A stretch of DNA of 64,000 nucleotides, from NCBI GenBank assembly GCA_031425275.1, contig JANPJA010000057.1, positions 1 to 64,000 on the forward strand. The letters run 5' to 3'. This document shows, in pieces, positions 33,103 through 59,111 of the stretch (within the stretch, counting starts at the first letter, position 1; every line of letters starts with the position of its first letter). Made by a program: the position numbers and the translations under genes. Under the pieces are notes generated by a model. The model did no database searches, was not told the DNA's origin, and saw nothing but the letters and a program-made list of their open reading frames with translations. The DNA is from Acidobacteriota bacterium. Lineage in GTDB: Bacteria > Acidobacteriota > Blastocatellia > Pyrinomonadales > Pyrinomonadaceae.

Positions 33103-33103
33103 G

Positions 33104-33406: not shown

Positions 33407-33412
33407 AAACCG

Positions 33413-35795: not shown

Positions 35796-35799
35796 TTTT

Positions 35800-40583: not shown

Positions 40584-40609
40584 TCAGAGTCGGCGAATTT
40601 CAGTACGGC

Positions 40610-40652
40610 AAAGGGATGGGCCGGCGTTTGATAGCGCCGGCCCATCCCTTTT
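40610..40652. terminator. Bidirectional terminator hairpin between convergent genes
   Basis: aaagggatgggccggcg tttgatag cgccggcccatcccttt is a perfect 17-bp stem flanked by A and T runs. Confidence 0.6.
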
Positions 40653-40673
40653 CCGTCGTACGAAGCGCCGCCC

Positions 40674-41783: not shown

Positions 41784-41847
41784 GGCCGTCCGCTCTCCTT
41801 ATGCGGGGGACTGACCGGGCCGGCCGGACGGCCCGGATGTGTGCGGC

Positions 41848-42408: not shown

Positions 42409-42740
42409 CTGCCCGCCAGAGCGCGCTCGATAGTCGCGCGATCCTTCTCCGAGAGGCCGTGGAAGCTGACGCCGACGCCGACGCCGGGGTTGCTGTAAAC
42501 CACTTCGGCGTTAACCACCACGTCGCCCTCGGCGAAGGGCAGACGGAGCGTGAGCAGCCCGCCCTCGGGTAGCTCTTTCTTCGTGTTCATGTAGAGTCCG
42601 CCCGCGCCGATGTCTTTCGTGCTGGCGATGCCGGTCGCGTCCGCCCCGTCAAAGTACACGTCCACGATCATGCGCGAGCGGTCGTGTCGGCGGCGTTCGT
42701 CGGGCGTCAACTCGTCGTCCCGGTCAGTCTCCCTGCTCAT
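42405..42740 (-). CDS. PilZ domain protein (c-di-GMP binding)
   Basis: The RRHDRSR (RxxxR) motif and the D.S.GG-type motif DIGAGGLYM are present in a roughly 110-aa protein. Confidence 0.68.
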   Translation of the reverse strand: MSRETDRDDELTPDERRRHDRSRMIVDVYFDGADATGIASTKDIGAGGLYMNTKKELPEGGLLTLRLPFAEGDVVVNAEVVYSNPGVGVGVSFHGLSEKDRATIERALAGS

Positions 42741-42852
42741 GCGCGCTAATTCCTCGTGTCAGATGTGAAGCGATCACAAACCCTGCCGCCCGGCCCGCGC
42801 CACGGCTTTCGCCGGACAGCCTCGCCTTGGGCCGAACGCGGCCGCGGCCGGT

Positions 42853-44205: not shown

Positions 44206-44378
44206 CTGTCCGGCCCGGATCGTGCTCGGCGTGGGTTTGATTTCGAGAGCTTTGACGCCGGGTAGAGTAACACATTTCGCGCCCGCGCGCGGGGGCAAAA
44301 CTCGCGGCAAAAAAAGAGGCGGGCGCGACCCTCGCCGCCCGCCGACCCCGTCTATATTTCCGCGCCTCGGCCGCAGAC

Positions 44379-46385
44379 TCAACGCACGGGCCGCTTAAGC
44401 TTCAACGTCTGTTTCTTGCCTTCGCGCAGGACGCCGAGCGTCACCTCGGGGCTGGCCGGCCCCGTGCTTTTCCGCCACTCGAAGCTCGGCCGCCCTTCGA
44501 TAGTCTCGACCAGATCGCCGCTCCGCAGCCCGGACTGATCGGCCGCGCTGCCGGGAATGACGGAGTAAACCATCAACCCGTCGAAGCTGATCGTCGCCCC
44601 TTCGGAAGTGTTCGTCCCTACGAAATACATCGCCTCCGCGCCGTAGGGGAAGAGCGGCTGCGCGGCCGGCCCCGTGCGACCCGTGCCCGCCGCGCTCAAG
44701 CGCGCGGCGGCTTCGCCGAGCCGCGTGGTCAAGAGCATGAGGTTGGCGGTGGCGTCGCGCAGTCGCACCCGGTTCTCGTCCACCTGCCGGCGCAGGGCCG
44801 CGACTTGGCTGACGGCCTGTTCATGACGCGCCAGCGCCGCCTTGTCTCCACCCCGGACGGCGAGGGATGTCTGAACTATCGTCTCGTCGAGCGCGCGCAA
44901 ATTCTCATCCACTTGGCGGATGCTTTCGTTGAGCCGTCGCATCAGTAAATCTGCGCGCCGCAACTCCGTCTCGGCGGCGCGGGCCTCGGCGTGCGCGGTC
45001 TCGAACGCGGGGTTTTGCGACTCGCTCAACTCCACCCGCAAAAGCATGGGGGAGTTTCGCGCGCGGAGGATCGAGAACCCGGCGCGTCGGTTCCCTCCCA
45101 CTTCGCGCAAAATCCACGACATGTCTTCGACATCGCGCACCTCGTGGTTCTCGATGCGCTCGATCACGTCGCCGGGCCGGAGTCCGGCGCGCGCGGCCGG
45201 ACTGTTCGGCGCGACCGCGGTCAGAACTACACCCTTCTGACGGCGCATCAATTCCCCGGCCTGTTCGCGGGGCCACCCTTGCGCGAGCAAAAATTTCTGA
45301 TTCGAGTCGGCGACCGAATCGCCGCGCGCGCCGAGCCACGGCTGCGGGACGCTCGCGCGCCGAGACTGCACGCGGGCCGCCGCGGCGCGCACCGCTTCGG
45401 CCGACAGCAGACGGCTCTCGCGCCCCCCGCTACCTTCGACGATGCCGACGAGCGCGCCCGCGTCGCTCAACACCACACCGCCCGCCCACTCCGGCGAGGC
45501 CCGCTCGACTTCAATCGTAAAAGCCGCCGCGCGTCCCGTCGGCGTGCGCCTGACTTCCTTGAGCCGGCCGTCGATCTCGCCGAGGCTCATGTAAAGCACG
45601 CCCGCGTCGCCGACCGGGCCGTCCGGGTTTTCGCTCGCGGCCGGTGCGGGATCGGGCCGCGCCTCGGCAGCCGCGGCGGCGGCGGCCGGCAGAGGCGCGA
45701 CGACGCGGACACGCTGGCCGATGACGAGCGGGGCTGCACTGGTCTCGGCCCCGCGGTCGAAGACGCTGGCGGCGGCTTCGAGTAGGGAGAGGCCGGTGCC
45801 CGCGTCGAAGCCTATGAATCTCGCGCCGATCCGTTCACCGTCCGCCTTGACCAGCACGAGTGTTGATTCGTCGCCGCCCGGCCCCGTGCCCGCCTCGCGG
45901 TAAAGTGCGGGGAGGCTCAGCATCTCCGCCTCCGCGCGCGGGAGTCGCGCCACCACCGAACGGCCGTCGCCGAGGACGAAGCCCGCGACGATGTTGGTGC
46001 GGACGAAACTTTCGTCGAACGTCGCGGCGATGGGGGCGTCCGGCGGCGCGACGAGCGCGCGCAATCTCCACCCGCGCAGGCGGTGGACAACTGCGACGAC
46101 CGGTTGCGGGATGGTCGCGTTGCGGCGCGACGAGCGCGCACCAGCCGGCTGCGAAGATCGGGGGGCCTGAGTCGCGTGGTTGGCCGGCATAGCCACACCC
46201 GGCGGGCTTGCCCCTTGCGCCCGCGCGTCAAGGGCGGTCACGAAGAACGCGGCGAACAGACAAGGGCCGACTCGTAGCGTGAGAGCCGTCAAGCAGTCGT
46301 GCCGCGAACGCCGCGCGCCGGCGGGAACCAACGCGCGGGTCATCCATGCAATTCTGTTTTGTAGCCGCTTAAACACTTTTACCAA
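44379..46385 (-). CDS. Secreted HtrA-like protein with two PDZ domains and a possibly degenerate trypsin-like domain
   Basis: It has a signal peptide and two PDZ motifs (GVVLTAVAPNSPAARAGLRPGDVIERI, GLMVYSVIPGSAADQSGLRSGDLVETI). The trypsin-like region reads VLSDAGALVGIVEG where GNSGGAL is expected. There is a central coiled-coil. Its start overlaps the anti-sigma stop. Confidence 0.7.
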   Translation of the reverse strand: MVKVFKRLQNRIAWMTRALVPAGARRSRHDCLTALTLRVGPCLFAAFFVTALDARAQGASPPGVAMPANHATQAPRSSQPAGARSSRRNATIPQPVVAVVHRLRGWRLRALVAPPDAPIAATFDESFVRTNIVAGFVLGDGRSVVARLPRAEAEMLSLPALYREAGTGPGGDESTLVLVKADGERIGARFIGFDAGTGLSLLEAAASVFDRGAETSAAPLVIGQRVRVVAPLPAAAAAAAEARPDPAPAASENPDGPVGDAGVLYMSLGEIDGRLKEVRRTPTGRAAAFTIEVERASPEWAGGVVLSDAGALVGIVEGSGGRESRLLSAEAVRAAAARVQSRRASVPQPWLGARGDSVADSNQKFLLAQGWPREQAGELMRRQKGVVLTAVAPNSPAARAGLRPGDVIERIENHEVRDVEDMSWILREVGGNRRAGFSILRARNSPMLLRVELSESQNPAFETAHAEARAAETELRRADLLMRRLNESIRQVDENLRALDETIVQTSLAVRGGDKAALARHEQAVSQVAALRRQVDENRVRLRDATANLMLLTTRLGEAAARLSAAGTGRTGPAAQPLFPYGAEAMYFVGTNTSEGATISFDGLMVYSVIPGSAADQSGLRSGDLVETIEGRPSFEWRKSTGPASPEVTLGVLREGKKQTLKLKRPVR

Positions 46386-47179
46386 ACGCCCTGCTTGTGT
46401 GCGGCGTTCACGACGCGCGCGCCTGTCACATTCGGCTCGCGCGATCCGAATGCCACCGGATCGACTCTGACCACGCGCGACGCGCCCCGCATGTCCTTGA
46501 AGGTGACTTGCAGCGGACGCTCCTCGGCAGACACCGGCAGCGCGATGATCGTCCCGCCGATCACGCTGCGAGAATGTTCGGCGAACCGCTCAACCCCACC
46601 CGACTCTGTCGCGATCTCTTCGAGAACGGCGGGCGGCACAATCGTCTGACGCCGCACTCGCCGGTCGCGACGACGATTGTTGACTCTGACCCCCGTCATG
46701 CCCGCCGCCGTTTCAATCGCACCGCCCCTATCCGGCGACATCCCGTCGGGTGAATCGTCCTGCGATTGTTTAACCTCCGGTGATTGTTCACTTCCGCCGG
46801 CCACGGCCGCGACGGTCGGGGTCTGCGAATCGACGGCGGCCACAGCGGGCGTCTCCTGCCGGCGCGGCCGTAGCGAAACCCCGACGGCGATCAGGAGGCA
46901 TAAGGCCGCCGCCGCCCACGCGGCGCGCGGGAAGTATGCCTGCCAGCCGGAACGCTCACGCGGCGTTGCTTCGGTCGCGAGACGCGCGCGCAGGCGGAAC
47001 TCGAAATCGTTCGGCGCGTCCACCCGCGCCAGACCGGCGACCAGTCCGCGCAGCGACGCGCGCTCCGCTTGGAAAGCGCGGCAGGCGTCACAGCCCGCGA
47101 GGTGCGCGCCGGCCGCCCGCCCCGGCGGCGCGTTCGCCCCGGCCACTTCGATCTCGACCCGGCAAAGCTTGCAATCCAT
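46379..47179 (-). CDS. Anti-sigma factor (zf-HC2 zinc finger, single TM)
   Basis: The N-terminal CKLC...HLAGCDAC zinc-finger motif, a TM helix AAWAAAALCLLIAVGVSL and a periplasmic C-terminal region are present. It lies immediately downstream of the ECF sigma gene. Confidence 0.7.
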   Translation of the reverse strand: MDCKLCRVEIEVAGANAPPGRAAGAHLAGCDACRAFQAERASLRGLVAGLARVDAPNDFEFRLRARLATEATPRERSGWQAYFPRAAWAAAALCLLIAVGVSLRPRRQETPAVAAVDSQTPTVAAVAGGSEQSPEVKQSQDDSPDGMSPDRGGAIETAAGMTGVRVNNRRRDRRVRRQTIVPPAVLEEIATESGGVERFAEHSRSVIGGTIIALPVSAEERPLQVTFKDMRGASRVVRVDPVAFGSREPNVTGARVVNAAHKQGVW

Positions 47180-47197
47180 GTCTTCCCTCTACTTCCC

Positions 47198-47881
47198 TTA
47201 CAGGTACTGCACCAACTTGTCGCGCAGGAACGAGCGCGCGCGGCTGATGCGCGACTTGACCGTCCCCTCGCTCATCTCAAGAATCCGCGCGATCTCGTCG
47301 TAGCTGCGCTCCTCAACGTCGCGCAGCACCAGCGGCACGCGATACTTCTCCGGCAACGAGGCAATCGCCCGCGCCACGGCCGCGCGCCTTTCGTCATCGA
47401 CGAGCGTGGCGTCGGCCAGCGGACTCAAATCGGCCGGGTCAAGCTCGCCCTCATCTTCGCCGCCGTCCCGCGACTGGAAAAAGTTCGTGAGCGAGACGAG
47501 CCGGTGCCGCTTGCGCTTGCGCAGCTCCGAGATCGCGAGGTTCGTCGCGATCTTGTAGATGTAAGTCGAGAAGGCGTAGCTCGACTGGTAGCGGTCGGCC
47601 GCGCGGAAGACGCGCAGGAAAGTCTCCTGCGCGAGATCGACCGCCGTGTCGTAGTCGCCGACGATCCGATAGACGTAGTTGGTGATCTGGCCCCGGTAAC
47701 GTCTGACCAGCTCACTAAACGCGGCCTCGTCGCCGTCGCGCGCGGAGAGCAGCAGGCCGTGATCCGACGTGGGATCGATCACGGCCGGCTCAAGCCGCGC
47801 CGCCCCAACCGGAGCCGCCCCGACGGCAGATTCGTCAATGATGATCAGCGCACTCATGCAGGACGGGCGGGCTCGCCACAC
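47198..47881 (-). CDS. RNA polymerase ECF-type sigma factor (sigma-70 regions 2 and 4)
   Basis: Region 2 (FSELVRRYRGQITNYVYRIVGDYDTAVDLAQETFLRVF) and region 4 (LPEKYRVPLVLRDVEERSYDEIARILEMSEGTVKSRISRAR) are present. The start may be the internal ATG at about 47854. Confidence 0.85.
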   Translation of the reverse strand: MWRARPSCMSALIIIDESAVGAAPVGAARLEPAVIDPTSDHGLLLSARDGDEAAFSELVRRYRGQITNYVYRIVGDYDTAVDLAQETFLRVFRAADRYQSSYAFSTYIYKIATNLAISELRKRKRHRLVSLTNFFQSRDGGEDEGELDPADLSPLADATLVDDERRAAVARAIASLPEKYRVPLVLRDVEERSYDEIARILEMSEGTVKSRISRARSFLRDKLVQYL

Positions 47882-48217: not shown

Positions 48218-50737
48218 ATGCCCCGGCAGATCACCAAGCATAGCGACGTTCTCGCGGCCATCGGCAAGGCCGACATCATCTCAGAGCTGATCGAGAAGGA
48301 TGACGGCGGGCACGGCGGCGGCGGCGACTCGGCCGCCAAGAGCGAGGCGTTCAAGTACGAACTCGACCTCGACGTGATCGCTTACGGGCGCAACTACAAC
48401 GGCAAAAAGGTCGGTCCCTACATCCGGCTCCTCGTCTATGAGCCGGGCGAGGAAATCGTCCGCGAGGGCGACTGGGGCGGCAACACATTTTTCATCGCGG
48501 TCGAAGGCGGGCTCGACGTTTTCGTCGCGGACGATTCCGGCGAAGCGAAGAAGGTGGCGGAACTTCCCCAAGGCGTGAGCTTCGGCGAGATGTCGGTGCT
48601 GGCGGGCGTGCCGCGCAACGCGACCGTCAAGGCCCCTCCGGCCGCGCGCGCCACCGTGCTCGAAATCACGCGGCCCGCGCTCCGCCTGCTGCGCAAGCTC
48701 CCCCGGTTCGGCCACGCGCTCGACGTGACCTACCGACAGCACGGCCTCGCCCGCACCCTCGTCGATGTGCAACAGGCCACCGGCTCGGCCTTCGACAAGG
48801 AACTGCTCGGACAACTCGGCGACGCCGCGCGCTTTGTCGTTTACGGCAAGAACCACGTGATGCACGCCGAGGGTGAAACTATCGAGCGCGTCGTCTTCGT
48901 CAAGAACGGCTGGGTGCGGCGCGTGCGCGGCCTGCGCGTCGGCGAAGGCGTCTCCGAGATCGTCCCGGCCCTCGACGAGGGCGTGGACGCGGCCGTTGAC
49001 TTCCTCGGCGCGGGCAACTGTCTCGGCCTCGAAGGCGTGGACGCCGACGTGAGCTGGAAATATACGGCGACGGTGCTGGCGCGCACCGAAGCTCTGGAAA
49101 TCTCCATCGAGCACTTGCGCGACAACCCGAAGCTGCGCGGGATCGTCGCCAGAGAGTTCGCCGAGTTCTCGCTCGCCGACGACGACGTGCTGATGGAGCG
49201 GCGCGAAGACCTCCGCGTGCTTGGCGCGGCCGAAAAAGAGATCACGACCGGGCTGGTCGATGCGACGAATCTGCTCGTCATGGATATGGACTTGTGCATC
49301 CGCTGCGGCAACTGCTCGCTCGCCTGCCACAAGGTTCACGGCCAGTCGCGCCTGCTGCGTCGCGGCATCCACGTCGAACGTCCAGTGCGCCCCGGCTCCT
49401 CGTCGGATCAGCACGTCCTTGCCCCTTCCGTCTGCCTCCATTGCCAAGACCCGGAGTGTCTGACCGGCTGCCCCACCGGGGCCATCGGCCGCTTCCCCGG
49501 CGGGCAAATAGACATCGACCCCAAGACTTGTATCGGCTGCGGCGACTGCGCCGCCCAGTGCCCTTACAACGCCATCTCGATGGTGACGCGCAAAGGCCCC
49601 GCCCCGTCCGCGCCCGTCGGACTCGGCGCGCGCTTCCGCGGCTGGATGAGTCTTGCCCCGCCGCCGGAGCCGCCGCAGGTGACTGAGACCGAGAACCTGC
49701 TCGCGGTCAAATGCAACCTTTGCAACAACACGCCGCTCAACCCGGCCGGCGCGAAGCGCAAGGCTTACTCGTGTGAGGAGAATTGTCCGACGGGCGCGCT
49801 CGTGCGCGTCAACCCCCGCGAGTATTTCACCGAGGTGCGGGGCCGCGTCGGCCTCGTCTTTCAAGATCAGACGCACGCCATCGGCCGCAACATTCACAAG
49901 AGCGATCCCGGCGCGCGACTCGGCCACGCGCTCGGCGTCGTCGGCGCAGTTCTCTTCACCGTCGCGACCCTGTGGGCCATGCGCCGCTATGGCCTCGACG
50001 GACGACTCGGCGGCACGTGGCTTTCGGTGCGTTGGCTGACGGGACTCGTCGGCCTCGTCGGCATCGCCGTCGTGATGGCATATTCGGCGCGCAAGCAAGT
50101 CTATCGCCGCCGGGCGGGCGCGCTCCGCTACTGGCTGCTCGCGCACGTCTATGCGGGCGTCGTCGCGGGTGTGCTGCTCCTGCTCCACGGCGGGACGAGC
50201 ACGGGCGGGCTGTTGACGACCGCGCTGATGATCTCGTTTGATCTCACCATCCTGTCGGGGCTGTTCGGCATCGCGACTTACGTCATCGCGCCGCGCATCA
50301 TGACGAGCATCGAGGGCGAGCCGCTGCTCGTCGAAGACCTCCGCGCCCGGCGCGAGGAGCTGCGTTCGCAACTCGCGGGCGTCACGCAGCGGGCAGACGA
50401 GGCGACGCGCCGGCTCATCGCGCGCGACGTGTCCCGCCGCTTCCTCTCGTTCCGCTTCCTGCTCCGCCAGTACGCGCGGCGGGAAGAGTTATCGGTGTTA
50501 CAGGAACGCGCCCTCGCGGAGATGCGCGGCACGGCGGGCGGCATCACAGACCGGGCCTCGCGTCAGCTACTAACCGAGGCCGTCGAGGCGAGCGTGCTGC
50601 TGCGGCGGGCCGACTCGCTCATCTATTTGCATCAGTTGCTCAAGCTCTGGCTCGCCCCGCACGTCGTCGCCAGTTCGCTGATGCTCGTCCTGATGCTCGT
50701 CCACATCGTTCAGGTCATTTACTTCGCCGTCCGCTAG
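48218..50737 (+). CDS. Membrane protein with two cyclic-nucleotide-binding domains, a poly-ferredoxin (about four 4Fe-4S Cys clusters) and a C-terminal multi-TM domain
   Basis: 839 aa. The cNMP motifs are GD.GG..FFIAVEG...FGEMSVLAGVPRNATVKA and a second GETIERVVFVKNGWVRRV. Cys clusters are CIRCGNCSLACH, CLHCQDPECLTGCP, CIGCGDCAAQCP and CNLCNN..CEENCP. There are 5-6 hydrophobic helices in the last 250 aa. Confidence 0.8.
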   Translation: MPRQITKHSDVLAAIGKADIISELIEKDDGGHGGGGDSAAKSEAFKYELDLDVIAYGRNYNGKKVGPYIRLLVYEPGEEIVREGDWGGNTFFIAVEGGLDVFVADDSGEAKKVAELPQGVSFGEMSVLAGVPRNATVKAPPAARATVLEITRPALRLLRKLPRFGHALDVTYRQHGLARTLVDVQQATGSAFDKELLGQLGDAARFVVYGKNHVMHAEGETIERVVFVKNGWVRRVRGLRVGEGVSEIVPALDEGVDAAVDFLGAGNCLGLEGVDADVSWKYTATVLARTEALEISIEHLRDNPKLRGIVAREFAEFSLADDDVLMERREDLRVLGAAEKEITTGLVDATNLLVMDMDLCIRCGNCSLACHKVHGQSRLLRRGIHVERPVRPGSSSDQHVLAPSVCLHCQDPECLTGCPTGAIGRFPGGQIDIDPKTCIGCGDCAAQCPYNAISMVTRKGPAPSAPVGLGARFRGWMSLAPPPEPPQVTETENLLAVKCNLCNNTPLNPAGAKRKAYSCEENCPTGALVRVNPREYFTEVRGRVGLVFQDQTHAIGRNIHKSDPGARLGHALGVVGAVLFTVATLWAMRRYGLDGRLGGTWLSVRWLTGLVGLVGIAVVMAYSARKQVYRRRAGALRYWLLAHVYAGVVAGVLLLLHGGTSTGGLLTTALMISFDLTILSGLFGIATYVIAPRIMTSIEGEPLLVEDLRARREELRSQLAGVTQRADEATRRLIARDVSRRFLSFRFLLRQYARREELSVLQERALAEMRGTAGGITDRASRQLLTEAVEASVLLRRADSLIYLHQLLKLWLAPHVVASSLMLVLMLVHIVQVIYFAVR

Positions 50738-50766
50738 CGGCGGCGCGCACGCGAGACACGCCCGAC

Positions 50767-52290
50767 ATGGTGCAGCAGATCGGCAGATTCGTCATCACGC
50801 GCGAGGATCGCTCAATTGATCCCGTGACCGTGGTCGCGGAGGGGATGGCCATCGGGCGCGCGCCCGACTGCGAGCTGCACCTTAATCACCCGACCGTCTC
50901 GCGTCTGCACTGCGGGATTCAGCGGCACGGGGCGGAGTTCTACCTCTACCATTTCAGCAAGTCGAACGCGACGACGCTCAACGGCTTGCTCGTCGAAGAC
51001 CGCGCCGCGCTCTCCGAGGGCGATCAGATTCAGCTCGGCCCGTTCGTCGTCACGGTGACTATCCGCGGCCGCGCGCTCCATGCGGAAGTGCGTTACCAGC
51101 CGGCCGTGCGCATCGGCGACGGGGCCGTGGACGGCGAGAACGCGACCGTCGCAATCGCCGACGGCTCCGCGCCGGATGCGTCGGCGGAGCAGTCACAAAT
51201 ATCGATGCGGGAAATCAACCGCGCGGGCTTCGCGCCCGACATCGATCTAACGGAGACGGCGGAAGGCGAGGAGCGGGCGGACGCCTTCGCCCTCTTCTGG
51301 GACAAGCGCAAGCGCGAGGCGGGGAAGATTTCAGCCGCCTCGCCCTTGAGACCGCACGCGCCCCCGCGCCTCGGCAAGATGCGCTACAACTGGAAGCCGA
51401 CGCGCGACCTCGTCCGCCCGTGGCCGCTCGCGCTTTTCACTTGGGCGCTCGTGGTCGTCGGCCTGCTCTCGGCCGCCGCCGCCATCGGTTACACCAATGC
51501 CTTTTCGCCCGCGCCCCTATCCGACGCGCACGCCCGCGCCTCCATGACTTTGACGCCCGCCCTCGCCCGCGAACCGAACGCCAACTCCTGCACGACCTGT
51601 CACACGCTCACCGGGGGAATGGAGCAGGCGTGTGCCTCGTGTCACCAGACACAAGCTTTCTCACCCGCCACGCTCGACGCGCACTCCGCCGCCGGCGTGG
51701 GCTGCGTCACGTGCCACGCCGAACACCGCGGCAATGAGTTTCGCCCCGCCGTCGCCTCGCTCGCGGCTGATTTCCAGCCGGGCGTGAACCGCGAGCAAAC
51801 CTGCGCGGGGTGTCACAACGACGCGAACTCGAAACTCTACAACGGCCGCCGCGTCTCGACCCCGCACGGCGGGACAATCGGCTATCCCGTGTCGGGCGGT
51901 AAGTGGGAGTGGGAGGGTTTGACCGAGGCGGCGTGGGCGGCGAAGCCTGAGGGCCTGCGGAAGCTTCTGACGACGTGGCCCGCCGCGAGCGAGGGGGAGC
52001 GGCGCAGCCAGCAATTCCACGCCCTGCACCTGCACCGGCTCCGCGCCGTCGGCGGGCTGCGCGCCAACGCGGCGGGCGAGCTAACCTGTTCGAGCTGTCA
52101 CACGCGACTCGGCGCGGCCCTCGACCGCGACACGCCGCGCCAGACCTGCGCCGCCTGTCACAACGGTCTGAACGATGTCGAGTCCGGCCGCGCGCTCGTC
52201 TCGGCCGGCGCGCCCAACTGCATCTCGTGTCACGCGCAGCACCCGCGCGTCCGCCGCGACTGGGCCGCCCCGATGCTCGCCGGGAGGTGA
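50767..52290 (+). CDS. FHA-domain / transmembrane / heptaheme cytochrome c fusion protein
   Basis: The N-terminal FHA fold reads GRFVITR...IGRAPDCELHLNHPTVSRLHCGIQ...LNGLLV. One TM helix (LALFTWALVVVGLLSAAAAIGY) follows. Seven CxxCH motifs lie in the C-terminal half (CTTCH, CASCH, CVTCH, CAGCH, CSSCH, CAACH, CISCH). Confidence 0.8.
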   Translation: MVQQIGRFVITREDRSIDPVTVVAEGMAIGRAPDCELHLNHPTVSRLHCGIQRHGAEFYLYHFSKSNATTLNGLLVEDRAALSEGDQIQLGPFVVTVTIRGRALHAEVRYQPAVRIGDGAVDGENATVAIADGSAPDASAEQSQISMREINRAGFAPDIDLTETAEGEERADAFALFWDKRKREAGKISAASPLRPHAPPRLGKMRYNWKPTRDLVRPWPLALFTWALVVVGLLSAAAAIGYTNAFSPAPLSDAHARASMTLTPALAREPNANSCTTCHTLTGGMEQACASCHQTQAFSPATLDAHSAAGVGCVTCHAEHRGNEFRPAVASLAADFQPGVNREQTCAGCHNDANSKLYNGRRVSTPHGGTIGYPVSGGKWEWEGLTEAAWAAKPEGLRKLLTTWPAASEGERRSQQFHALHLHRLRAVGGLRANAAGELTCSSCHTRLGAALDRDTPRQTCAACHNGLNDVESGRALVSAGAPNCISCHAQHPRVRRDWAAPMLAGR

Positions 52291-52295
52291 AGATT

Positions 52296-52457
52296 GTCAG
52301 TGGTCAGTGGTCAGTGGTCAGTTGTTTGTCGTCATTAACCTTGCGCGTTTCTATGCGTGGGTCGAGTTTGCCAAGCACGAACCACTGACCACTGACCACT
52401 GACCACCGACCACTGACCACTGACCACTGACCACTGACCACTGACCACTGACCACCA
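52296..52457. repeat. Asymmetric heptamer tandem repeat hairpin: about 3.5 x CAGTGGT on the left arm, 11 x CACTGAC/CACCGAC on the right arm
   Basis: Read directly. The right arm ends caaccctATG at the start of the next gene. Confidence 0.85.
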
Positions 52458-52462
52458 ACCCT

Positions 52463-54019
52463 ATGAAGAAGTCGCAACTGCTCATCATCATTTCCATGTT
52501 CGGGCTGCTGCTCGCAATTAATTTACTGAGCGGGGAGCACGCGGGCGCGAAGGATTTTTTCGGCGGCTTGCCGTGGTACGGGTGGGCCGGGGTCAGCTTC
52601 TTCCTCGGCGGCTGGGGCGTCGGGTTCATGCTGCGCGACGCCGCGCGCTCGCGCCGCCTGATGGTGGAGCCGCCGCCGCCCGCGCCCGAAGACGCCGACG
52701 CCGGCCGCATCCGGCTCACGCCCGAACAGGTCGAGAAGTATGATCAGGACGGCCCCGACTACCCGCACCCGGTCGTCCTCACGGAGTACTGCATCGGCTG
52801 TCATGCCTGCGTCGAAGCCTGTCCGCATGACGTGCTCGCCGTCATCAACGGCTACGCCACCGTCATCGCGCGCGACATGTGCATGGAGGACACGTCCTGT
52901 CAGGTCGAGTGTCCGGTCAACCCGAAGGCGTGCGTCGTCGTCAACACCTCCAAGCGCATTCCGAAGCGTAAAGTCCCGACGCGCGACGCGAGTTTTATGA
53001 CCAACGTGCCCGGCTGCTTCATCATCGGCGACGTGTCGGGCACGCCCCTGATCAAGAACGCCGCCAACGAGGGCGCGGACGTGATCAAACACATCCTCGA
53101 CGAACTCGCGGCGAGCGGGCCGGAGCCGAAGGCCGAATTAGACGTGGCGATTGTCGGGATGGGGCCGGCCGGACTCTCTGCCGCCGTCGTCGCGCGGCAG
53201 GCCGACCTGCGTTACGTCGGCGTCGAGCAAGACACCGTGCTCGCGACCATCGAGGCTTACCCGGCCAACAAGTACGTCCACTTTAAGCCGACGACGATGA
53301 AGGCGCGCGGCGGCATCGAGGTCGAGGGCGCGGGGATGCAGCGCGAGGCGATTCTCGCGGACTGGAAGCGGGTGATGTTGGAGACCGGCGTTCGGGTCAA
53401 CGAGTTCGAGAGCTGTCGGTCGGTCAAGCGCGCGGAGGACGGCGACTACTTCGTCGTCCAGACCGAGCGCGGCGCGGCCCGCGAGCCGGCGGTCTATCGC
53501 GCCCGTCACGTCGTCCTCGCGCTCGGCAACCGCGGCACGCCGATGAAGCTCGGCGTCCCCGGCGAAGGCTCGCAGATCGTGCGCGACGGCCGCGCCGAAG
53601 AGAAGGTGCAATATCGTTTGAGCGACCCGGAGGCTTACAAGGGCAGGAAGGTCGTCGTCGTCGGCGCGGGCAACTCGGCCATCGAGGCGGCGGTTGACTT
53701 GGTCGCGCGTCGCGAGGGCGACCGGATCGCATTCCGCCCCGAATCGGAGATCAACGAAGTCTCGCTCGTCATCCGCAGCGATCTCAAGAACGATCTGAAG
53801 TTTGGTAATAAGCAGCAGGTTTACCACTGCATCGACGAGGGCAAGATCAAGGTCTATTTCGGCACGGCCGTCAAGGAGGTGCGCGACGCCGAGGTCGTGC
53901 TGATGAACGCGCGGACGAAGGAAGACAAGGGCACGATCCCGAACGACTTCGTCTTCGCCCTGATCGGCGGCGAGCGGCCGACCGAGTTTCTCAAGTCAAT
54001 CGGCATCACCATCGGATAA
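52463..54019 (+). CDS. Membrane-anchored 2x[4Fe-4S] ferredoxin fused to an FAD/NAD(P)-binding oxidoreductase (pyridine nucleotide-disulfide oxidoreductase-like)
   Basis: 518 aa with two N-terminal TM helices. CIGCHACVEACP and CQVECP are the Fe-S motifs. DVAIVGMGPAGLSAAV (FAD GxGxxG) and VVVVGAGNSAIEAAVDL (NAD(P) GxGxxA) are present. It is not NuoI-like in length or architecture. Confidence 0.78.
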   Translation: MKKSQLLIIISMFGLLLAINLLSGEHAGAKDFFGGLPWYGWAGVSFFLGGWGVGFMLRDAARSRRLMVEPPPPAPEDADAGRIRLTPEQVEKYDQDGPDYPHPVVLTEYCIGCHACVEACPHDVLAVINGYATVIARDMCMEDTSCQVECPVNPKACVVVNTSKRIPKRKVPTRDASFMTNVPGCFIIGDVSGTPLIKNAANEGADVIKHILDELAASGPEPKAELDVAIVGMGPAGLSAAVVARQADLRYVGVEQDTVLATIEAYPANKYVHFKPTTMKARGGIEVEGAGMQREAILADWKRVMLETGVRVNEFESCRSVKRAEDGDYFVVQTERGAAREPAVYRARHVVLALGNRGTPMKLGVPGEGSQIVRDGRAEEKVQYRLSDPEAYKGRKVVVVGAGNSAIEAAVDLVARREGDRIAFRPESEINEVSLVIRSDLKNDLKFGNKQQVYHCIDEGKIKVYFGTAVKEVRDAEVVLMNARTKEDKGTIPNDFVFALIGGERPTEFLKSIGITIG

Positions 54020-54036
54020 GCTCCGGCCGGGACATT

Positions 54037-54093
54037 AAAACCGCCGCGGCCGCGCGTGAAGCTCGAAGACTTCACGCGCGGCCGCTGCGGTTT
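54037..54093. terminator. Bidirectional terminator hairpin between convergent genes
   Basis: aaaaccgccgcggccgcgcgtgaag ctcgaagac cttcacgcgcggccgctgcggttt has a 24-bp stem with one mismatch, followed by a U-run on the + strand. Confidence 0.6.
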
Positions 54094-54113
54094 CGTTGAT
54101 CAAAAGGGTGCGC

Positions 54114-54638
54114 CTATTTCTCGTCTAACCCGTTCGTCGGAACCGGCCGTCCCATCGACTGGTAGATGCCGACGATCTCGTCCATCCGCGCGCGGGCCGT
54201 CGCGTTGCCCGGTTCGTAGCGCAAGGCGCGCCGGTAATCGCCGAGCGCGAACTTGTAGAGCTGCGGCTGCCCCGCGTCGCGGTAGGCGTTCCCGCGCTCG
54301 ACGTAGGCGGCTGCGGCGGCCTGTTTCTCGGCCGCGCCCGCGCCCGCCGCCTGCGCCTTGGCCTCCACCAGCTTGATCTTCGCGTCGAGCGCGGCCGTGT
54401 CCATGTCGGGCTTACCGGCCGGCACTGCCGGCCCGTTCGCGGTCGCGGCCGGTGCGCCGCCGCCGTGGGCCGAAGTGACGGGCGGCAACTCCGCGCGGTT
54501 CGCGCCGCCGTTAATCGCGCCGGTTCGCGAACCCGTGGCGTTATCCGCGCGCTGACTGTTTTCCGAAGTGGCGACCGGGCCGCAGCCCGCGAGCGCGGCG
54601 GCGGCGAGGGCGATGATGGCGAAATGTTTTTTCATCAA
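54114..54638 (-). CDS. Lipoprotein with a TPR-like C-terminal region
   Basis: The signal peptide with lipobox LAGCG, an Ala/Gly-rich linker and TPR-like helices (YVERGNAYRDAGQPQLYKFALGDYRRALRYEPGN) are present. Confidence 0.6.
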   Translation of the reverse strand: MMKKHFAIIALAAAALAGCGPVATSENSQRADNATGSRTGAINGGANRAELPPVTSAHGGGAPAATANGPAVPAGKPDMDTAALDAKIKLVEAKAQAAGAGAAEKQAAAAAYVERGNAYRDAGQPQLYKFALGDYRRALRYEPGNATARARMDEIVGIYQSMGRPVPTNGLDEK

Positions 54639-54721: not shown

Positions 54722-55315
54722 TCAGTCGTTGCCCGATGTGGGTTTGCCCGAATGACAGTCGGCGCACTTGATGGGCGCGAGCGTGTCGGCCTTCGTCTTC
54801 TTCGCCGCCTCGTGGCAGGTGATGCAGTTGCGGTGGTAAGCCTCTTCGTTCGTCAGCACGACTTCGTCGCCGTCCTCGTAAGTCACCTTCGGGTTCTCGG
54901 CCCAGCCCGCCGGCTTCACGTCGACCTGCGCGTGGCACGAGGCGCACGACTTGACCGGCTTCGCGTCGGCCTTCTCCAGCCCGGCCGTGGTCAGCACGTC
55001 TTCACGCTCGGAGGTTTTGAGTATGCCCTTGAGGGCGGACTTGGGCTGATCCGTGTGATGACACTCGGCGCAGCCGATGACGGACTTGAGATCGGCGCTG
55101 TAGTTCTTGAGCGAGTGGGTCTTATGGTTGAAAGGAACCTTCTCCTTGTCAGGACTCTTGGCCGTCTTCGCGCCCTTGTTGAGGACGACGTGCTCGGGCT
55201 GAATTTTGCTGTCGAAAAGAAGGGCGGCGGCGCTCGTCGGCGCGGGGGCGATCCCGGCGAGGGCCAGCGCGGCGTAGGCCGCGGCCGCGCCGATTGCGAT
55301 GCGGATTTTCATCAT
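54722..55315 (-). CDS. Periplasmic tetraheme cytochrome c (cytochrome c3-like)
   Basis: It has a signal peptide and four CxxCH motifs (CAECH, CASCH, CITCH, CADCH) in 197 aa. Confidence 0.85.
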   Translation of the reverse strand: MMKIRIAIGAAAAYAALALAGIAPAPTSAAALLFDSKIQPEHVVLNKGAKTAKSPDKEKVPFNHKTHSLKNYSADLKSVIGCAECHHTDQPKSALKGILKTSEREDVLTTAGLEKADAKPVKSCASCHAQVDVKPAGWAENPKVTYEDGDEVVLTNEEAYHRNCITCHEAAKKTKADTLAPIKCADCHSGKPTSGND

Positions 55316-55495
55316 TCGTGTTCCTTAAACCCTGTCGGCGGCTTGAAAGAGATTAGTGCGGTAAAGTGCGAATCCACGGGGAGTGGCCGCGGCCGTGGCC
55401 GCCGCAGCCGTGGGACTCAGGCGAGGAATGATAGACAGCCCCTCACACCCTTGTCAACATTTTCGCCCGTCAAGTAGTGTCCTACTTTCAGCTTT

Positions 55496-55594
55496 CCTCT
55501 GCGCCCCCTCTGCGGTTCTCTGCGTCTCTGCGGTGAATGATAGTTAATCAGGCGCTCACCGCAGAGACGCAGAGGGCGCGGAGGGGGCGCAGAG
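55496..55594. repeat. Heptamer-repeat hairpin element, CTCTGCG family
   Basis: ctctgcgccccctctgcggttctctgcgtctctgcggtgaat ... tcaccgcagagacgcagagggcgcggagggggcgcagag. A related partial copy lies at 40..118 at the window start. Confidence 0.8.
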
Positions 55595-55623
55595 TACAAA
55601 TCAAATTAGGACACCACCGCCCA

Positions 55624-56592
55624 TCAAGAGCCCATGCGGAAGTTCTGCCGCTTGTGGCAGAGCCGGCAATTGTTGAAATCGGCGTCGCCGAAGACGACCC
55701 GCCCGCCGTTGCCGCGACGGTCGTTGTGACAGGTCATGCAACTCTGCGCGCGACCCGTTTGGAAGTGCTGTGCGACGCGGGGCAATGTCACCTGTCGCGA
55801 CTGCGCGAGGCCGGGCCGGAGCCGGTGGCAGTCGTCGCAGCGCAAACGCTGGCGCGCTCCGTGCGCCGTGTGACTGAAGCTCGCGGCGAAGGCGGCGCGG
55901 TTAACGCTCGTGGGCGAATAGCGCGCGGCCGGAGTGTGACAGACGCCGCACGAACCGATGTCGCGGCCGGCTGACCGGGCCCCCGGCGTGTGGCACGAAT
56001 AGCACTGCGCGTGCGCGCCGAGGCCGGCGGGGATGGTCAGCGCGGCCGGGCGACGCGCGACGGGACGGTGGCACGCGACGCAACCCGCGGCGGGGCGGGC
56101 CGCGCCCGCGTCGTGCTGGGCGTGATCGAAACGCGCGTCGAAGCTGGCGAGGGCGGGGAAATTTTTAACCGGCGGGTCTTGCCCGTCGAGGTTCGTATGG
56201 CAGATGGCGCACATCGGGACGTTCTGCGTGACGAACTGCGGGAGGTGACAATCGGTGCAGGCCTTGTGTCCGGGCAGACGCGGCTGGGTCGAGTTGTCGC
56301 GCCGGTCGTGACAGGCCGCACAGGCGAGCGAGGCGTGGCGCGGGCTGTTGTGCATGAAGCGCGAGAAGTCAGCACCGGCCTGCGCCCGCGAGGCGGCGAA
56401 ACTCACGGCGCGCGATTCAAGGAACTTGGGGCGGGGGTCGGCGGCACGGCCACCAACGAGTGTCGAGGCGAGCGCGAAGACGGCGAAAGCGATTAGCGCG
56501 GCCAGAGACACGCGGGCCCGCGCGTCGCGACCCCGCACGCGGCCGCGTCCGTACATTTTCCCGCCTCTGTTGTGATCGCCTCCGGGCATCAT
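55624..56592 (-). CDS. Multiheme cytochrome c (9 CxxCH)
   Basis: Nine CxxCH motifs were counted in 322 aa, with an N-terminal signal/TM segment. The start is possibly the internal ATG at 56556. Confidence 0.85.
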   Translation of the reverse strand: MMPGGDHNRGGKMYGRGRVRGRDARARVSLAALIAFAVFALASTLVGGRAADPRPKFLESRAVSFAASRAQAGADFSRFMHNSPRHASLACAACHDRRDNSTQPRLPGHKACTDCHLPQFVTQNVPMCAICHTNLDGQDPPVKNFPALASFDARFDHAQHDAGAARPAAGCVACHRPVARRPAALTIPAGLGAHAQCYSCHTPGARSAGRDIGSCGVCHTPAARYSPTSVNRAAFAASFSHTAHGARQRLRCDDCHRLRPGLAQSRQVTLPRVAQHFQTGRAQSCMTCHNDRRGNGGRVVFGDADFNNCRLCHKRQNFRMGS

Positions 56593-56668
56593 TTAGGTTT
56601 TCCGCATCACGCCCCTCGATTCGTCGATCTAAATTCAGGCGGCGCGGGGCTGGCCGGATTGGTCAGGC

Positions 56669-58069
56669 TTACTTAACCACTTCGCGGCAGCGTTCGGGCG
56701 TCGCCGCTTCGATCCCTTTCGTGTTCTTTTTCTCCTTGACCGCGCTGGCGTAAACGGCCGCGTAGTGACCGCACGGTACTTCCGCCGCCGTGCTCACAGG
56801 CGGCGAATGACAGAGGGCGCAATCGAACTTGGCATCCTTGCCGCGCTCGCGCAACTCGCGGAAGACCGAGAGCCGAAGCTGAGCCGTGCCGGAGACCGCC
56901 GTGTGACAAGCCGTCGAAGCGCAGGTCAACAACTGCACGCGGTTCTCTCTCAGGCGAAAGATTTCGAGAGTCGTGGCTTTACGCGCCGAAGCGTGGCACT
57001 GCAAACAAGTGATCGGGACTTCCTTGCCCTCGTCGTTGGTGCGCTTCTTGTGCGGCTCGATTTCGTGAGCGAATTTAGGCGAGACGCGCGGGGGCCACGA
57101 TCTCGATTGCGCCGACAATAAGCGCGAGGCCGACGCCGGAACGATGCGCGGCACGGCCGCGACCGCCGCCGGCCGCGAGTTGGTGTTCGCCCGAGAGTTT
57201 GAGGTTGGCCTTGGTGTGGTCGCGGCAACGGCGGCGGCGGGCAGCGGCTTCAACGCAACGGCCTGATTGCGGTGGCAGCCCGCGCAGTTCGAGGCCAGCG
57301 GCGCTTGCTCGCGCCCGTCAACGTCGTCGCGCCAGTGGCACTGGAAGCACGTGGCGTGGCTCGTCGGCGTCGTCATGAACGTGCCCGGCTCCGGCGCGAA
57401 GTCCGCCGGCCGCGGCGCCGGCTGCTGGCGGAAGTCGCGCGTGTCAACTTTGTGGCAATACTGGCAGGTGGCCGTCGTCGTCGCCTTGTCGCCGAGGATG
57501 CGTTTGAACTGGATCAGCGAGGTGGCTTTGACGTGATTCGAGTGCGGGAACACGTCGGCGAACTCGGCGGGCCGGCCCTCGCGCGGGAACTCGTGGCGGG
57601 CCTCGCCGCGCGGGGCGACGACGGTGTGACAGTTCGAGCAGATGACGGGGCGCGCGCCGCGGAAGAACTGCGGGCGGTGACACTCGACGCACGAAGGGTG
57701 ATCGGGGTAATCGTTGATGTCGGGCCGCTCGAACGACTCGATGCGGTGACAGGCGGCGCAGTCGCGACTCAAGTGCTTGGCCGAAGAGTGCGAGAAGTTC
57801 GAGTAGTCGATGGCGGGACGCCGGGGCGAGCGCCGGCCGCCGGGTTGCGCGCGAATTCTCGCGGGCGTTTGCGCGCCGGAGGCCGCGACGCTAGTGACGG
57901 ACGGAGCGCGCGTCGCGGCGAAAAAACAAGACGCCGTCGCGGCGATCAGCGCGAGGGCGCAGAGTCGCGCGTCAAGGCGCCGCCGCGGCGGCGACCCCTG
58001 GGGTGAACTGTCGGAATTATTGGCGCTTTGAAAAAGACTCACACGGGTGCGCGCGACGTGCCGCCTCAC
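56669..58069 (-). CDS. Multiheme cytochrome c (8 CxxCH plus one CX4CH-like site)
   Basis: CAACH, CVECH, CSNCH, CQYCH, CFQCH, CAGCH, CLQCH and CALCH are present, plus CASTACH. A signal peptide-like N-terminus is present. Confidence 0.85.
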   Translation of the reverse strand: MRRHVARTRVSLFQSANNSDSSPQGSPPRRRLDARLCALALIAATASCFFAATRAPSVTSVAASGAQTPARIRAQPGGRRSPRRPAIDYSNFSHSSAKHLSRDCAACHRIESFERPDINDYPDHPSCVECHRPQFFRGARPVICSNCHTVVAPRGEARHEFPREGRPAEFADVFPHSNHVKATSLIQFKRILGDKATTTATCQYCHKVDTRDFRQQPAPRPADFAPEPGTFMTTPTSHATCFQCHWRDDVDGREQAPLASNCAGCHRNQAVALKPLPAAAVAATTPRPTSNSRANTNSRPAAVAAVPRIVPASASRLLSAQSRSWPPRVSPKFAHEIEPHKKRTNDEGKEVPITCLQCHASARKATTLEIFRLRENRVQLLTCASTACHTAVSGTAQLRLSVFRELRERGKDAKFDCALCHSPPVSTAAEVPCGHYAAVYASAVKEKKNTKGIEAATPERCREVVK

Positions 58070-58290: not shown

Positions 58291-59007
58291 TCACCGACCG
58301 CTCTTCCCCGCCCCGGTCGAAGCCGCCGGGGCCGGCGCGGGCGTTTCGATCTCCTGACGAAGCCGCGTGATGGCTTCGTTGGATGGGTTGAGGGCTTCGA
58401 GTTTGGCGAGCGTGGCGCGCGCTTCGTCAATCGCGCCATTTTTCGCGAGGGCGAAGGTGAGCAGTTGGAGCGAAGGCTCGTGGCGCGAGTCGCGCTCAAT
58501 AGCGCGGCGGAGTTCGATGACCGCGCGGTCGTAATCGGGCGGCTGGTTGAGCAGATGGACGCGGGCGAGGTCGGCGCGCACCGACACGTTCTCCGGGTTC
58601 ATCTGGAGCGCGGCCGCGTACCACTTCGCGGCGGTGGTGAAGTTGGCCGCGTCCGAATTGACGTGGCCGAGCGCGACGACCGGCTCGACGTTACTCGGTT
58701 GGATGGTGTTGGCGCGGAGCAGAAACTCGATGGCGTCGTCGAACCGCTCGGCCTCGTAGAGGGCGCGGGCCGCAACCATTTGCGCGTCGAAATTTTGCGG
58801 ACTCTCGCGCGCGCGCTTCAAGGACTCTTCGGCCTCTGTGCGCAGCCGCTCCTGATCCGCGACGGCGTTCGAGGGCAACTGCCGGCTTTGCTCGGGCGTG
58901 CGCGCGCCCGTCGCCGCGCGCTGGTTCGCCCAGCTCGCGAAGGCGAACCCGAAGAACAACCCGAAGCCGATGCCGACGAGCGAGAAAAGGACGGAATCCC
59001 GGTTCAT
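58291..59007 (-). CDS. TPR-repeat membrane-anchored protein (CcmH/CycH-like accessory candidate)
   Basis: An N-terminal TM helix (LFSLVGIGFGLFFGFAFASW) and TPR repeats are present. It is paralogous to the protein at 62536..63300 (shared QPPDY.RAV.E.R.A...R.HE.SLQ motif). Confidence 0.7.
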   Translation of the reverse strand: MNRDSVLFSLVGIGFGLFFGFAFASWANQRAATGARTPEQSRQLPSNAVADQERLRTEAEESLKRARESPQNFDAQMVAARALYEAERFDDAIEFLLRANTIQPSNVEPVVALGHVNSDAANFTTAAKWYAAALQMNPENVSVRADLARVHLLNQPPDYDRAVIELRRAIERDSRHEPSLQLLTFALAKNGAIDEARATLAKLEALNPSNEAITRLRQEIETPAPAPAASTGAGKSGR

Positions 59008-59032
59008 AGTGATCAGTGACGCGACGAGCGGT

Positions 59033-59110
59033 GGTTAACCGTGACGGGTGACAGGTGACAGGTAATACCTCGTCTCATCCTGTCACCCGTCACGGTTTAC
59101 CCGTGACGGC
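59033..59110. repeat. Heptamer-repeat hairpin element, GTCACCC/GTCACGG family
   Basis: ggttaaccgtgacgggtgacaggtgacagg ... cctgtcacccgtcacggtttacccgtgacgg read directly. Confidence 0.8.
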
Positions 59111-59111
59111 T

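Follow-up and report, generated by a model that had tools for sequence, protein, structure and literature searches.

The question of whether bacteria can pass electrons from reduced pyridine nucleotides (NAD(P)H) to periplasmic cytochromes without the participation of quinones is made addressable by three consecutive genes, here designated A, B and C. They occupy positions 48218-54019 of a 64,000-nucleotide stretch of acidobacterial DNA (positions 1-64,000 of contig JANPJA010000057.1, assembly GCA_031425275.1, forward strand; hereafter the window). All three open reading frames (ORFs) are present on the + strand, a 185-kb contig on record encodes proteins identical to A and B (the latter being P0001), and the named relatives of both proteins come from Acidobacteriota of the family Pyrinomonadaceae. 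We assign a probability of roughly one half to the reading that A, B and C form one inner-membrane redox complex, namely a signal-gated conduit along which electrons would run from NAD(P)H through flavin adenine dinucleotide (FAD), iron-sulfur (FeS) clusters and haem b to haem c.

Domain architecture and membrane topology of A, B and C

A sequence-only reading of the window had described A as a protein with two cyclic nucleotide (cNMP)-binding domains, four 4Fe-4S clusters and five to six transmembrane (TM) helices, B as an FHA domain joined through one TM helix to a periplasmic heptahaem cytochrome, and C as a membrane-anchored ferredoxin fused to an FAD/NAD(P) oxidoreductase. Each of these descriptions is borne out: that of A by Pfam, the cysteine map and hydropathy, which places the number of helices at five; that of B by Pfam, seven CXXCH motifs and a single TM helix; and that of C by its TM segment and its Fer4 and Pyr_redox_3 matches (coordinates in Table 1).

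The N-terminal part of A matches the cNMP_binding family (PF00027, E=4.3e-19) in two stretches, the first of which scores 68.7 bits against a threshold of 27.5 and displays a canonical phosphate-binding cassette. The second, degenerate domain retains an invariant cysteine, C268 (window 49019-49021), inside the invariant motif GNCLGLE, and this region may be a redox- or ligand-sensing site instead of a nucleotide pocket. Between the cNMP domains and TM1 lies a ferredoxin domain with 16 cysteines in four cluster motifs (C360/363/366/370, C406/409/414/418, C438/441/444/448 and C499/502/519/523). All 16 are 100% conserved in 69 homologues with identities down to 53%, and also in four more distant homologues at 35-46% identity. 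At the domain level this region matches many Fer4-type families of Pfam, including Fer4_11, as well as the NCBIfam models for NrfC, DmsB and DsrO; it falls outside the equivalog-level four-cluster ferredoxins, with best NCBIfam scores of 47-54 bits against cutoffs of 200-450. No signal or twin-arginine translocation (Tat) motif was found in A, and because neither a TM helix nor a Tat signal precedes the ferredoxin domain, the latter is predicted to be cytoplasmic.

The membrane domain of A comprises hydrophobic helices at residues 567-589, 600-625, 636-659, 664-694 and 807-839, the hydrophilic insert of about 110 residues being situated before the last of these. Two histidine pairs with Hx13H spacing are found on TM3 (H643/H657) and TM5 (H815/H829), and all four residues show the same 100% conservation in the 69 homologues and at 35-46% identity. 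The positive-inside loop RKQVYRRR, the helix count and hydropathy indicate that TM3 and TM5 share an in-to-out orientation, so that H643 would be level with H815 near the cytoplasm, and H657 with H829 near the periplasm. Thus, A displays the generic arrangement of di-haem cytochromes b, with two histidine pairs about 13 residues apart on parallel TM helices. Such paired-histidine geometry is that of bis-His di-haem b cytochromes, for example cytochrome b, the NOX/FRE proteins and MsrQ. The membrane domain therefore bears the signature of a transmembrane di-haem b protein, and haem binding is a well-motivated prediction. As FeS clusters on one side of the membrane and c-haems on the other cannot form a conduit without a membrane-spanning redox cofactor, it is these histidines that would supply it. 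PDB sequence searches returned no match to this domain, and no Pfam family, including Ferric_reduct, DUF4405 and the quinol-oxidising families, matched it above threshold. Comparisons by hhalign with E. coli MsrQ, YodB and NarI gave probabilities below 1%, their sensitivity being limited by single-sequence templates and by a structure model of moderate quality (predicted local distance difference test, pLDDT, 68). The domain is possibly a new haem-b membrane fold.

In B, the FHA domain scores 56.6 bits against a cutoff of 20.7 (PF00498, E=3.6e-15), and when the model of B was compared with the PDB by Foldseek all top matches were FHA domains, so that the earlier FHA assignment stands by both profile and fold. 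The closest solved relatives by PDB profile and Foldseek are the FHA domains of GarA/OdhI, Rv0020c, DgcB and Ki67. The residues that bind phosphothreonine (pThr) are conserved in alignment A1: G30, S45, H48 and N72 are invariant, R46 is found in at least 90% of the sequences, and R31 in 17 of the 19 used for its count. AlphaFold2 (AF2) models the FHA strands at residues 8-110 (pLDDT 65-85) and the TM helix at 220-245 (pLDDT ~77). This helix is internal, following about 215 cytoplasmic residues, in contrast to the N-terminal helix of NapC/NirT/CymA/NrfH, and Pfam matches at E<=0.1 include no Cytochrom_NNT signature (NapC/NirT/CymA/NrfH). A positive-inside motif precedes the helix and the haem domain follows it. 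The haem domain scores 34.6 bits against 24.8 for Cytochrome_C7 and has CXXCH motifs at 275, 289, 313, 346, 441, 461 and 485. Seven further invariant histidines (H255, H306, H320, H367, H418, H421 and H492) would suffice to give each of the seven haems bis-His ligation. The basic juxtamembrane motif is nearly invariant, being kept even in the distant relatives P0247, P0250, P0257 and P0302. Its T212-R-D-L fits the T-x-x-L preference of FHA ligands, which makes self-recognition after phosphorylation plausible; by analogy with GarA or DgcB, the FHA domain might thus be switched by the protein's own phosphorylated T212.

C is anchored by a TM helix at residues 3-26 and probably by a second, Gly/Trp-rich helix at 37-57. 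The second FeS motif of its ferredoxin domain is non-canonical (Cx5Cx3CP...x6C). The flavoprotein part matches Pyr_redox_3 at 230-514 (E=4.3e-34) and has GxGxxG motifs at 232, for FAD, and at 401, for NAD(P)H, the latter followed by ARREGDR. It contains no CxxC redox disulfide, and it remains below the cutoffs of both YpdA/Bdr (TIGR04018, 149.1 bits vs 339.9) and thioredoxin reductase (TIGR01292, 57.5 bits vs 343).

Conservation, gene linkage and natural fusions

The best 120 protein matches of B were examined, and nearly all are full-length, at 47-100% identity, with both FHA and cytochrome Pfam domains present. The architecture, with an invariant linker and TM helix, recurs in more than 120 full-length clusters that stem from independent assemblies; 62 matches below 1e-30 were obtained in an exhaustive search of 1.84 billion cluster representatives, a separate search started from the most distant full-length relative gave 10, none of them bearing the name of a taxon, and relatives of B are encoded by at least 260 species genomes. 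The earlier reading had allowed for an artefactual joining of the two halves of B. That the FHA and cytochrome halves were brought together by a frameshift or an assembly error is ruled out by the presence of the TM helix, by the conservation of the fusion across these clusters and 260 species genomes, and by the identical P0001 on its 185-kb contig, and the probability left to it is negligible.

Gene linkage was counted in 80 species-level loci, the best 80 of the 260 species genomes, in which the relative of B is full-length or nearly so. These loci all belong to Acidobacteriota (Pyrinomonadaceae, Blastocatellia and Chloracidobacterium), and the named members of the B clusters are likewise Acidobacteriota or Blastocatellia. 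B directly follows A in 78/80 loci, the exceptions being one contig end and one paralogue in a different context (L065), and is itself directly followed by C in 68. Relatives of B at only 32-39% identity are again immediately preceded by a protein with cNMP and Fer4 domains (797-946 aa) and have no C. In view of this retention of A without C in the distant relatives, A-B is the core module and C an accessory.

Natural fusions of B with C are found in at least five divergent clusters, separate at 50% identity (P0257, P0267, P0265, P0278 and P0258), with the order FHA, TM, multihaem, TM, Fer4 ferredoxin and Pyr_redox_3 flavoprotein, and the fusion P0257 again follows a homologue of A. At the level of sequence, these fusions are classical Rosetta-stone evidence of joint function, and their topology places the redox domains of C in the cytoplasm. 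In another case (P0244, a metagenomic protein of 1276 aa), a B-like TM and heptahaem core is joined to a C-terminal cytochrome resembling cyt322, the second of the three cytochromes encoded downstream; P0244 has no FHA domain, and its large N-terminal region is multi-TM and of no assigned type.

The flavoprotein part of C is longer in some lineages, where 130-220 aa are inserted around residue 290 (L012, L023, L024, L027, L029 and L037, ~10450-10950). An apparent truncation of C in about 12 loci was rejected, since the insertion merely divides the tblastn match into two pieces. An insert of the same type in the fusions P0257 and P0267 holds paired CxxC motifs resembling zinc ribbons.

The proposed electron path, its alternatives and known systems

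In the conduit reading, C would oxidise NAD(P)H at its FAD and hand the electrons through its two FeS clusters to the four [4Fe-4S] clusters of A at the cytoplasmic face of the membrane. Two b-haems of A, one on the cytoplasmic side ligated by H643 and H815 and one on the periplasmic side ligated by H657 and H829, would then carry them across the membrane. In the periplasm they would be taken up by the seven bis-His c-haems of B, a protein that its single TM helix would hold beside A, and B would reduce the soluble multihaem cytochromes encoded downstream (4, 9 and 8-9 haems). On bioenergetic grounds, outward flow from NAD(P)H would be downhill, driven by the membrane potential and so dissipating it. 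Control would be exerted through the cNMP-binding domain of A and the FHA domain of B, possibly by way of the invariant T212-R-D-L of the latter. A dissipative outlet for reducing power, or "valve", needs control, and this would explain the presence of sensory domains in two subunits. The fully specified version, an NAD(P)H:cytochrome c electron valve that works without quinones and has a new di-haem b fold as its wire, switched by cyclic AMP or cyclic GMP at A and by Ser/Thr phosphorylation at the FHA domain of B, is a tentative proposal. The sequence-only reading had likewise predicted a conduit gated by signalling: a conduit equipped with signalling domains is supported by synteny, by the B+C fusions and by the four TM histidines of A, whereas for the gating itself the pointers are the ligand-binding residues.

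A different role for the b-haems of A would be that of a quinol/quinone site like those of NarI, DsrM, HdrE and QmoC. The complex would then be no pure wire and would link the menaquinone pool to the c-haems of B, as CymA or ImcH do, and/or to the cytoplasmic FeS and flavin centres, as in Qmo and Dsr. The architecture is indeed like that of the established FeS plus cytochrome b modules NarGHI, QmoABC, DsrMKJOP and HdrDE, and the lineages that have A-B without C need some other donor or acceptor, such as quinol. Quinone reduction has also been proposed in a preprint for an FHA-nonahaem protein of Ferrigenium (10.64898/2026.01.22.701106). We nevertheless consider a quinone-coupled complex doubtful, given that A has no detectable similarity to NarI, cytochrome b561, MsrQ or the quinol-oxidising families of Pfam, that B is without a NapC/NirT signature, and that the recurrent fusion of B to an NAD(P)H flavoprotein argues for a pyridine-nucleotide end in the cytoplasm.

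Several observations weigh against the gated conduit. The related modules with FeS clusters and cytochrome b (NarHI, QmoC, DsrMK and HdrDE) are all quinone-linked, and even within the conduit reading A may have a quinone site. C is missing beside A-B in about 12 of the 80 loci and in the distant contexts, which implies that NAD(P)H is not the universal donor. As regards the haem b, the one sub-threshold hint of a family relationship, a match of DUF4405 to the TM3 helix, occurs in a single distant member of the A family (21.7 bits, below 26.7); experiments have demonstrated that the DUF4405 family uses four central histidines to bind haem b (PMC11334425). The structure prediction of B that the earlier reading had proposed is usable for the FHA domain and the TM helix, but it is poor for the haem domain (pLDDT below 50, 48.6 for the model overall), and hence no fold is inferred from it. 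On the regulatory side, the cassette of the first cNMP domain is kept in most homologues of A and degenerate in L081. The second domain is without the canonical phosphate-binding Glu and Arg (GAGNCLGLE...WxYTAT), which makes its ligand binding doubtful. A search for neighbouring Ser/Thr kinases and adenylate cyclases, also proposed earlier, had a negative outcome, no Pkinase, PP2C or cyclase domain being present among the scanned window ORFs of at least 180 aa. Finally, no outer-membrane porin or cytochrome conduit is found in this cluster.

The general kind of system is known. The complexes TmcABCD, HmcABCDEF, QmoABC and DsrMKJOP of sulfate reducers consist of a periplasmic multihaem cytochrome c, a membrane cytochrome b and a cytoplasmic FeS protein or flavoprotein, and A-B-C shares this logic. 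A parallel to A is QmoC, which combines an FeS domain and a di-haem b membrane domain in one protein, and QmoA and QmoB are flavoproteins like C. A differs in having no CCG/HdrD-type or HdrC-type domain, in the NrfC/DmsB type of its FeS part and in a membrane domain unrelated by sequence to NarI/HdrE; moreover, the Tmc, Hmc, Qmo and Dsr complexes are quinone-linked and none contains an FHA or cNMP domain.

The di-haem proteins of the ferric-reductase type (NOX/FRE, MsrQ, PepSY-like and DUF4405; PMC11334425) share with A the two histidine pairs on TM3 and TM5 and their spacing of about 13 residues. They pass electrons from cytoplasmic NAD(P)H or flavin to an extracytoplasmic acceptor without quinones, which is like the role proposed for A. 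Their TM helices number six, whereas A has five and the cytoplasmic insert of about 110 aa before TM5, and in A-B-C six FeS clusters would be interposed between flavin and haems and the acceptor would be a multihaem cytochrome c.

B is comparable to CymA/NapC/NrfH, ImcH and CbcL as a membrane-anchored periplasmic multihaem cytochrome c that would feed periplasmic cytochromes, and ImcH also has seven haems. These proteins have no cytoplasmic FHA domain, however, and B is strictly paired with an FeS/5-TM protein. Precedents for FHA domains that switch an enzyme or membrane protein through pThr, including that of their own phosphorylated tail, are provided by GarA/OdhI, Rv1747 (an FHA-ABC transporter) and DgcB (FHA-GGDEF), which also rank among the best PDB matches to the FHA domain of B; the difference lies in the partner, which in B is a redox protein of respiratory type. 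In its flavoprotein fold, and in its dinucleotide motifs for FAD and NAD(P)H, C agrees with YpdA/Bdr and with the thioredoxin reductase (TrxR)-like ferredoxin-NADP+ reductases (FNR). As in C, the CxxC disulfide is absent from YpdA and FNR, and C is set apart from both by its membrane anchor and its fusion to a two-cluster ferredoxin. Thus, what is new in this system is its specific parts, namely the FHA-anchored multihaem cytochrome c, the fusion of cNMP domains, four-cluster ferredoxin and 5-TM domain, and the anchored ferredoxin-FNR.

The earlier reading had not recognised the FHA-multihaem fusion as a described family. This is correct insofar as no Pfam or NCBIfam family covers the whole of B, nor the membrane domain of A, but comparable proteins of the Gallionellaceae were listed in 2023 and discussed in 2026, with no function given. 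Two mentions only were found in the literature: a pangenome study lists in its Table 1 a "Forkhead-associated protein" with 10 CXXCH motifs in 27 genomes (PMC10734462), and section 6.3.2 of a preprint describes an FHA-nonahaem protein ("NHC") of Ferrigenium straubiae beside a 5-TM protein and a [4Fe-4S] protein (10.64898/2026.01.22.701106). According to the preprint, the combination had not been reported before to its authors' knowledge, the 5-TM protein has no known domain, and the function is left open. Compared by description, the Ferrigenium and A-B arrangements are alike in the cytoplasmic FHA domain, the single TM helix, the periplasmic multihaem cytochrome c and the joint presence of 5-TM and [4Fe-4S] components. 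They differ in the number of haems, which is nine or ten in the Gallionellaceae proteins and seven in B, and in the 5-TM and FeS parts, which are separate proteins in Ferrigenium and in A form a single polypeptide together with two cNMP domains. In addition, C has no counterpart among the partners reported for NHC, and NHC comes from Betaproteobacteria as opposed to Acidobacteriota. By this comparison of descriptions, the window contains a fused and extended version of the Ferrigenium arrangement in another phylum.

The enrichment of FHA-multihaem proteins in Fe(II)-oxidising Gallionellaceae (PMC10734462; 10.64898/2026.01.22.701106), together with the multicopper oxidase and outer-membrane barrels that adjoin some relatives of B, would fit a flow in the opposite direction, in which periplasmic cytochromes charged by Fe(II), H2 or other donors would pass electrons through B and A and, via C, to cytoplasmic ferredoxin or NAD(P)+. 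Such inward uptake is unlikely, since reduction of NAD(P)+ (-320 mV) from bis-His c-haems would on bioenergetic grounds be uphill and against the inside-negative potential, and the module is without a proton- or ion-translocating energy-coupling subunit. The cultured members of the lineage are described as aerobic heterotrophs or photoheterotrophs, which likewise counts against uptake.

Allosteric or phospho-dependent gating built into electron-transfer subunits would be a rare feature; to our knowledge, respiratory chains are mostly regulated at transcription and direct gating of this kind is seldom seen. The Pyrinomonadaceae/Blastocatellia/Chloracidobacterium group of Acidobacteriota, whose members are abundant in soils, has conserved the module throughout, and we know of no study of the use of multihaem cytochromes by these bacteria. 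If the valve reading is true, it would imply post-translational control of periplasmic electron export in soil Acidobacteria and possibly in the Fe(II)-oxidising Gallionellaceae, for whose FHA-multihaem proteins the module offers a testable model.

Genomic neighbourhood

Table 1. Coordinates in the window of genes A, B and C, their domains and the surrounding features.
Feature	Positions	Strand	Evidence
Gene A, 839 aa: cNMP x2, 4x[4Fe-4S], 5-TM putative di-haem b domain	48218..50737	+	ORF, Pfam, NCBIfam, homologues of same architecture
A, cNMP-binding domain 1, residues 73-156, cassette FGEMS...PRNAT	48434..48685	+	Pfam best stretch
A, cNMP-like domain 2, ~residues 195-300 (approximate coordinates)	48800..49117	+	Second Pfam stretch, alignments
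A, four-cluster ferredoxin domain, residues 353-527, NrfC/DmsB/HybA-like	49274..49798	+	Fer4 families, sub-cutoff NCBIfam
A, membrane domain, residues 560-839: 5 TM helices, ~110-aa cytoplasmic helical insert	49895..50734	+	Hydropathy
Gene B, 507 aa: cytoplasmic FHA, one TM helix, periplasmic heptahaem cytochrome c	50767..52290	+	
B, FHA domain, Pfam residues 29-91	50851..51039	+	Pfam, alignment A1, PDB profile, Foldseek
B, juxtamembrane motif, residues 177-220, FWxKRxRExGK...GKxRxNWxPT212RDLxRPWP	51295..51426	+	Invariant columns of A1
B, TM helix, residues 218-247	51418..51507	+	Hydropathy 2.27
B, periplasmic haem domain	51529..52245	+	CXXCH map, alignment A1, Pfam Cytochrome_C7 and c3
B-C spacer: inverted heptamer arrays, GTCAGTG x3.9, then 60 nt later ACCACTG x10.7	52291..52462	+	
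Gene C, 518 aa: TM hairpin anchor, 2-cluster ferredoxin, FAD/NAD(P)H flavoprotein	52463..54019	+	
C, ferredoxin domain, residues 104-157: CIGCHACVEACP + Cx5Cx3CP...C157	52772..52933	+	Pfam Fer4, Fer4_7, Cys map
C, flavoprotein, residues 227-517, YpdA/TrxR-like	53141..54013	+	Pyr_redox_3, TIGR04018, PDB 7a76/7a7b
TPR lipoprotein, lipobox LAGC	54114..54638	-	Syntenic in 45/80 loci
Three secreted multihaem cytochromes	54722..58069	-	Pfam, haem counts
cyt197, 4 CXXCH	54722-55315	-	
cyt322, 9 CXXCH	55624-56592	-	
cyt466, 8 CXXCH + one CX4CH	56669-58069	-	
TPR protein, CcsA, ResB/CcsB (system II cytochrome c maturation)	58291..62281	-	Pfam; synteny partial, loci end early
ECF sigma factor (47198-47881), putative anti-sigma (46379-47179), PDZ protein (44379-46385)	44379..47881	-	Pfam

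The set of periplasmic multihaem cytochromes that the earlier reading had noted nearby is represented by cyt197, cyt322 and cyt466, which lie just downstream on the - strand. Such cytochromes follow the module in 45-48 of the 80 loci, and those of the window are probable periplasmic partners of B. The wider block has the order extracytoplasmic function (ECF) sigma/anti-sigma/PDZ, A-B-C, TPR lipoprotein, three cytochromes, TPR protein, CcsA and ResB, and is kept in 26-51 of the 80 loci, many of which end before its far end.

The divergent ECF sigma, anti-sigma and PDZ genes upstream are syntenic in 43-51 of the 80 loci. This, the adjacency of the module to histidine kinases and response regulators in L084 and L085, and the typical signalling nature of FHA and cNMP modules would be consistent with a redox sensor, in which the cofactors would report the periplasmic and cytoplasmic redox state and the FHA and cNMP domains would signal it, for example to the ECF sigma/anti-sigma/PDZ system. 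Such a role is improbable. The cofactors, amounting to 6 FeS clusters, FAD, 2 putative b-haems and 7 c-haems, with 21-22 haems in the neighbouring cytochromes, and the dedicated flavoprotein exceed those of any known sensor. FHA and cNMP domains are input modules that bind ligands, and the proteins have no output domain. Furthermore, no conserved ECF-type promoter (GAAC-N-CGT) was found upstream of A across 47 loci; a scan for sigma-70 promoters also found nothing.

The spacer between B and C (arrays at 52296-52322 and 52381-52455) would form, as RNA, a stem of about 27 bp with a minimum free energy of -82.9 kcal/mol (z=-8.07), and this hairpin may be an attenuator or a processing site. In an Rfam search of the 46-56 kb region for riboswitches or known RNAs, only spurious matches to miRNA hairpins or precursors were obtained. 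Intergenic tandem heptamer arrays recur across the window, often as inverted pairs about 60-80 nt apart that predict long hairpins. Further pairs occur at 31214-31237/31300-31330, 33414-33441/33498-33535 and 63302-63334/63409-63454, and single arrays at 24801, 25425, 26766, 27429 and 38993. They are reminiscent of the STRR heptamer repeats of cyanobacteria. Strong palindromic hairpins at 54033-54098, between the convergent C and TPR lipoprotein genes, and at 55477-55614, where cyt197 and cyt322 are separated, gave nothing in Rfam but spurious miRNA-precursor matches; they probably represent terminators or repeat elements.

In two other loci, the surroundings of the B relative are different. 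In L065 (3027-12807) it adjoins a 1350-aa protein with multihaem and LVIVD-repeat regions and an outer-membrane barrel of CarboxypepD_reg and OMP_b-brl_4 type, and in L085 (10708-17016) a multicopper oxidase and the same kind of barrel; these neighbours may connect the B relatives of other lineages with metal redox chemistry at the outer membrane.

Upstream of the PDZ/ECF block, the window (39612-44382) encodes a class I GATase, a GCS2-type glutamate-cysteine ligase and a circularly permuted ATP-grasp protein, a cluster that may make a small peptide or thiol and for which no link to A-B-C was found. A complex I (nuo) operon of about 14 kb (24833-38936), with the 30K, 49K, 24K, 51K and 75K subunits, NuoH and three antiporter-like subunits, indicates that the organism also has the conventional NADH:quinone route. 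An ORF of 1763 aa (12453-17744) with Lamin-tail (LTD) and Big_2 domains and PD40 repeats is probably a large secreted or surface protein.

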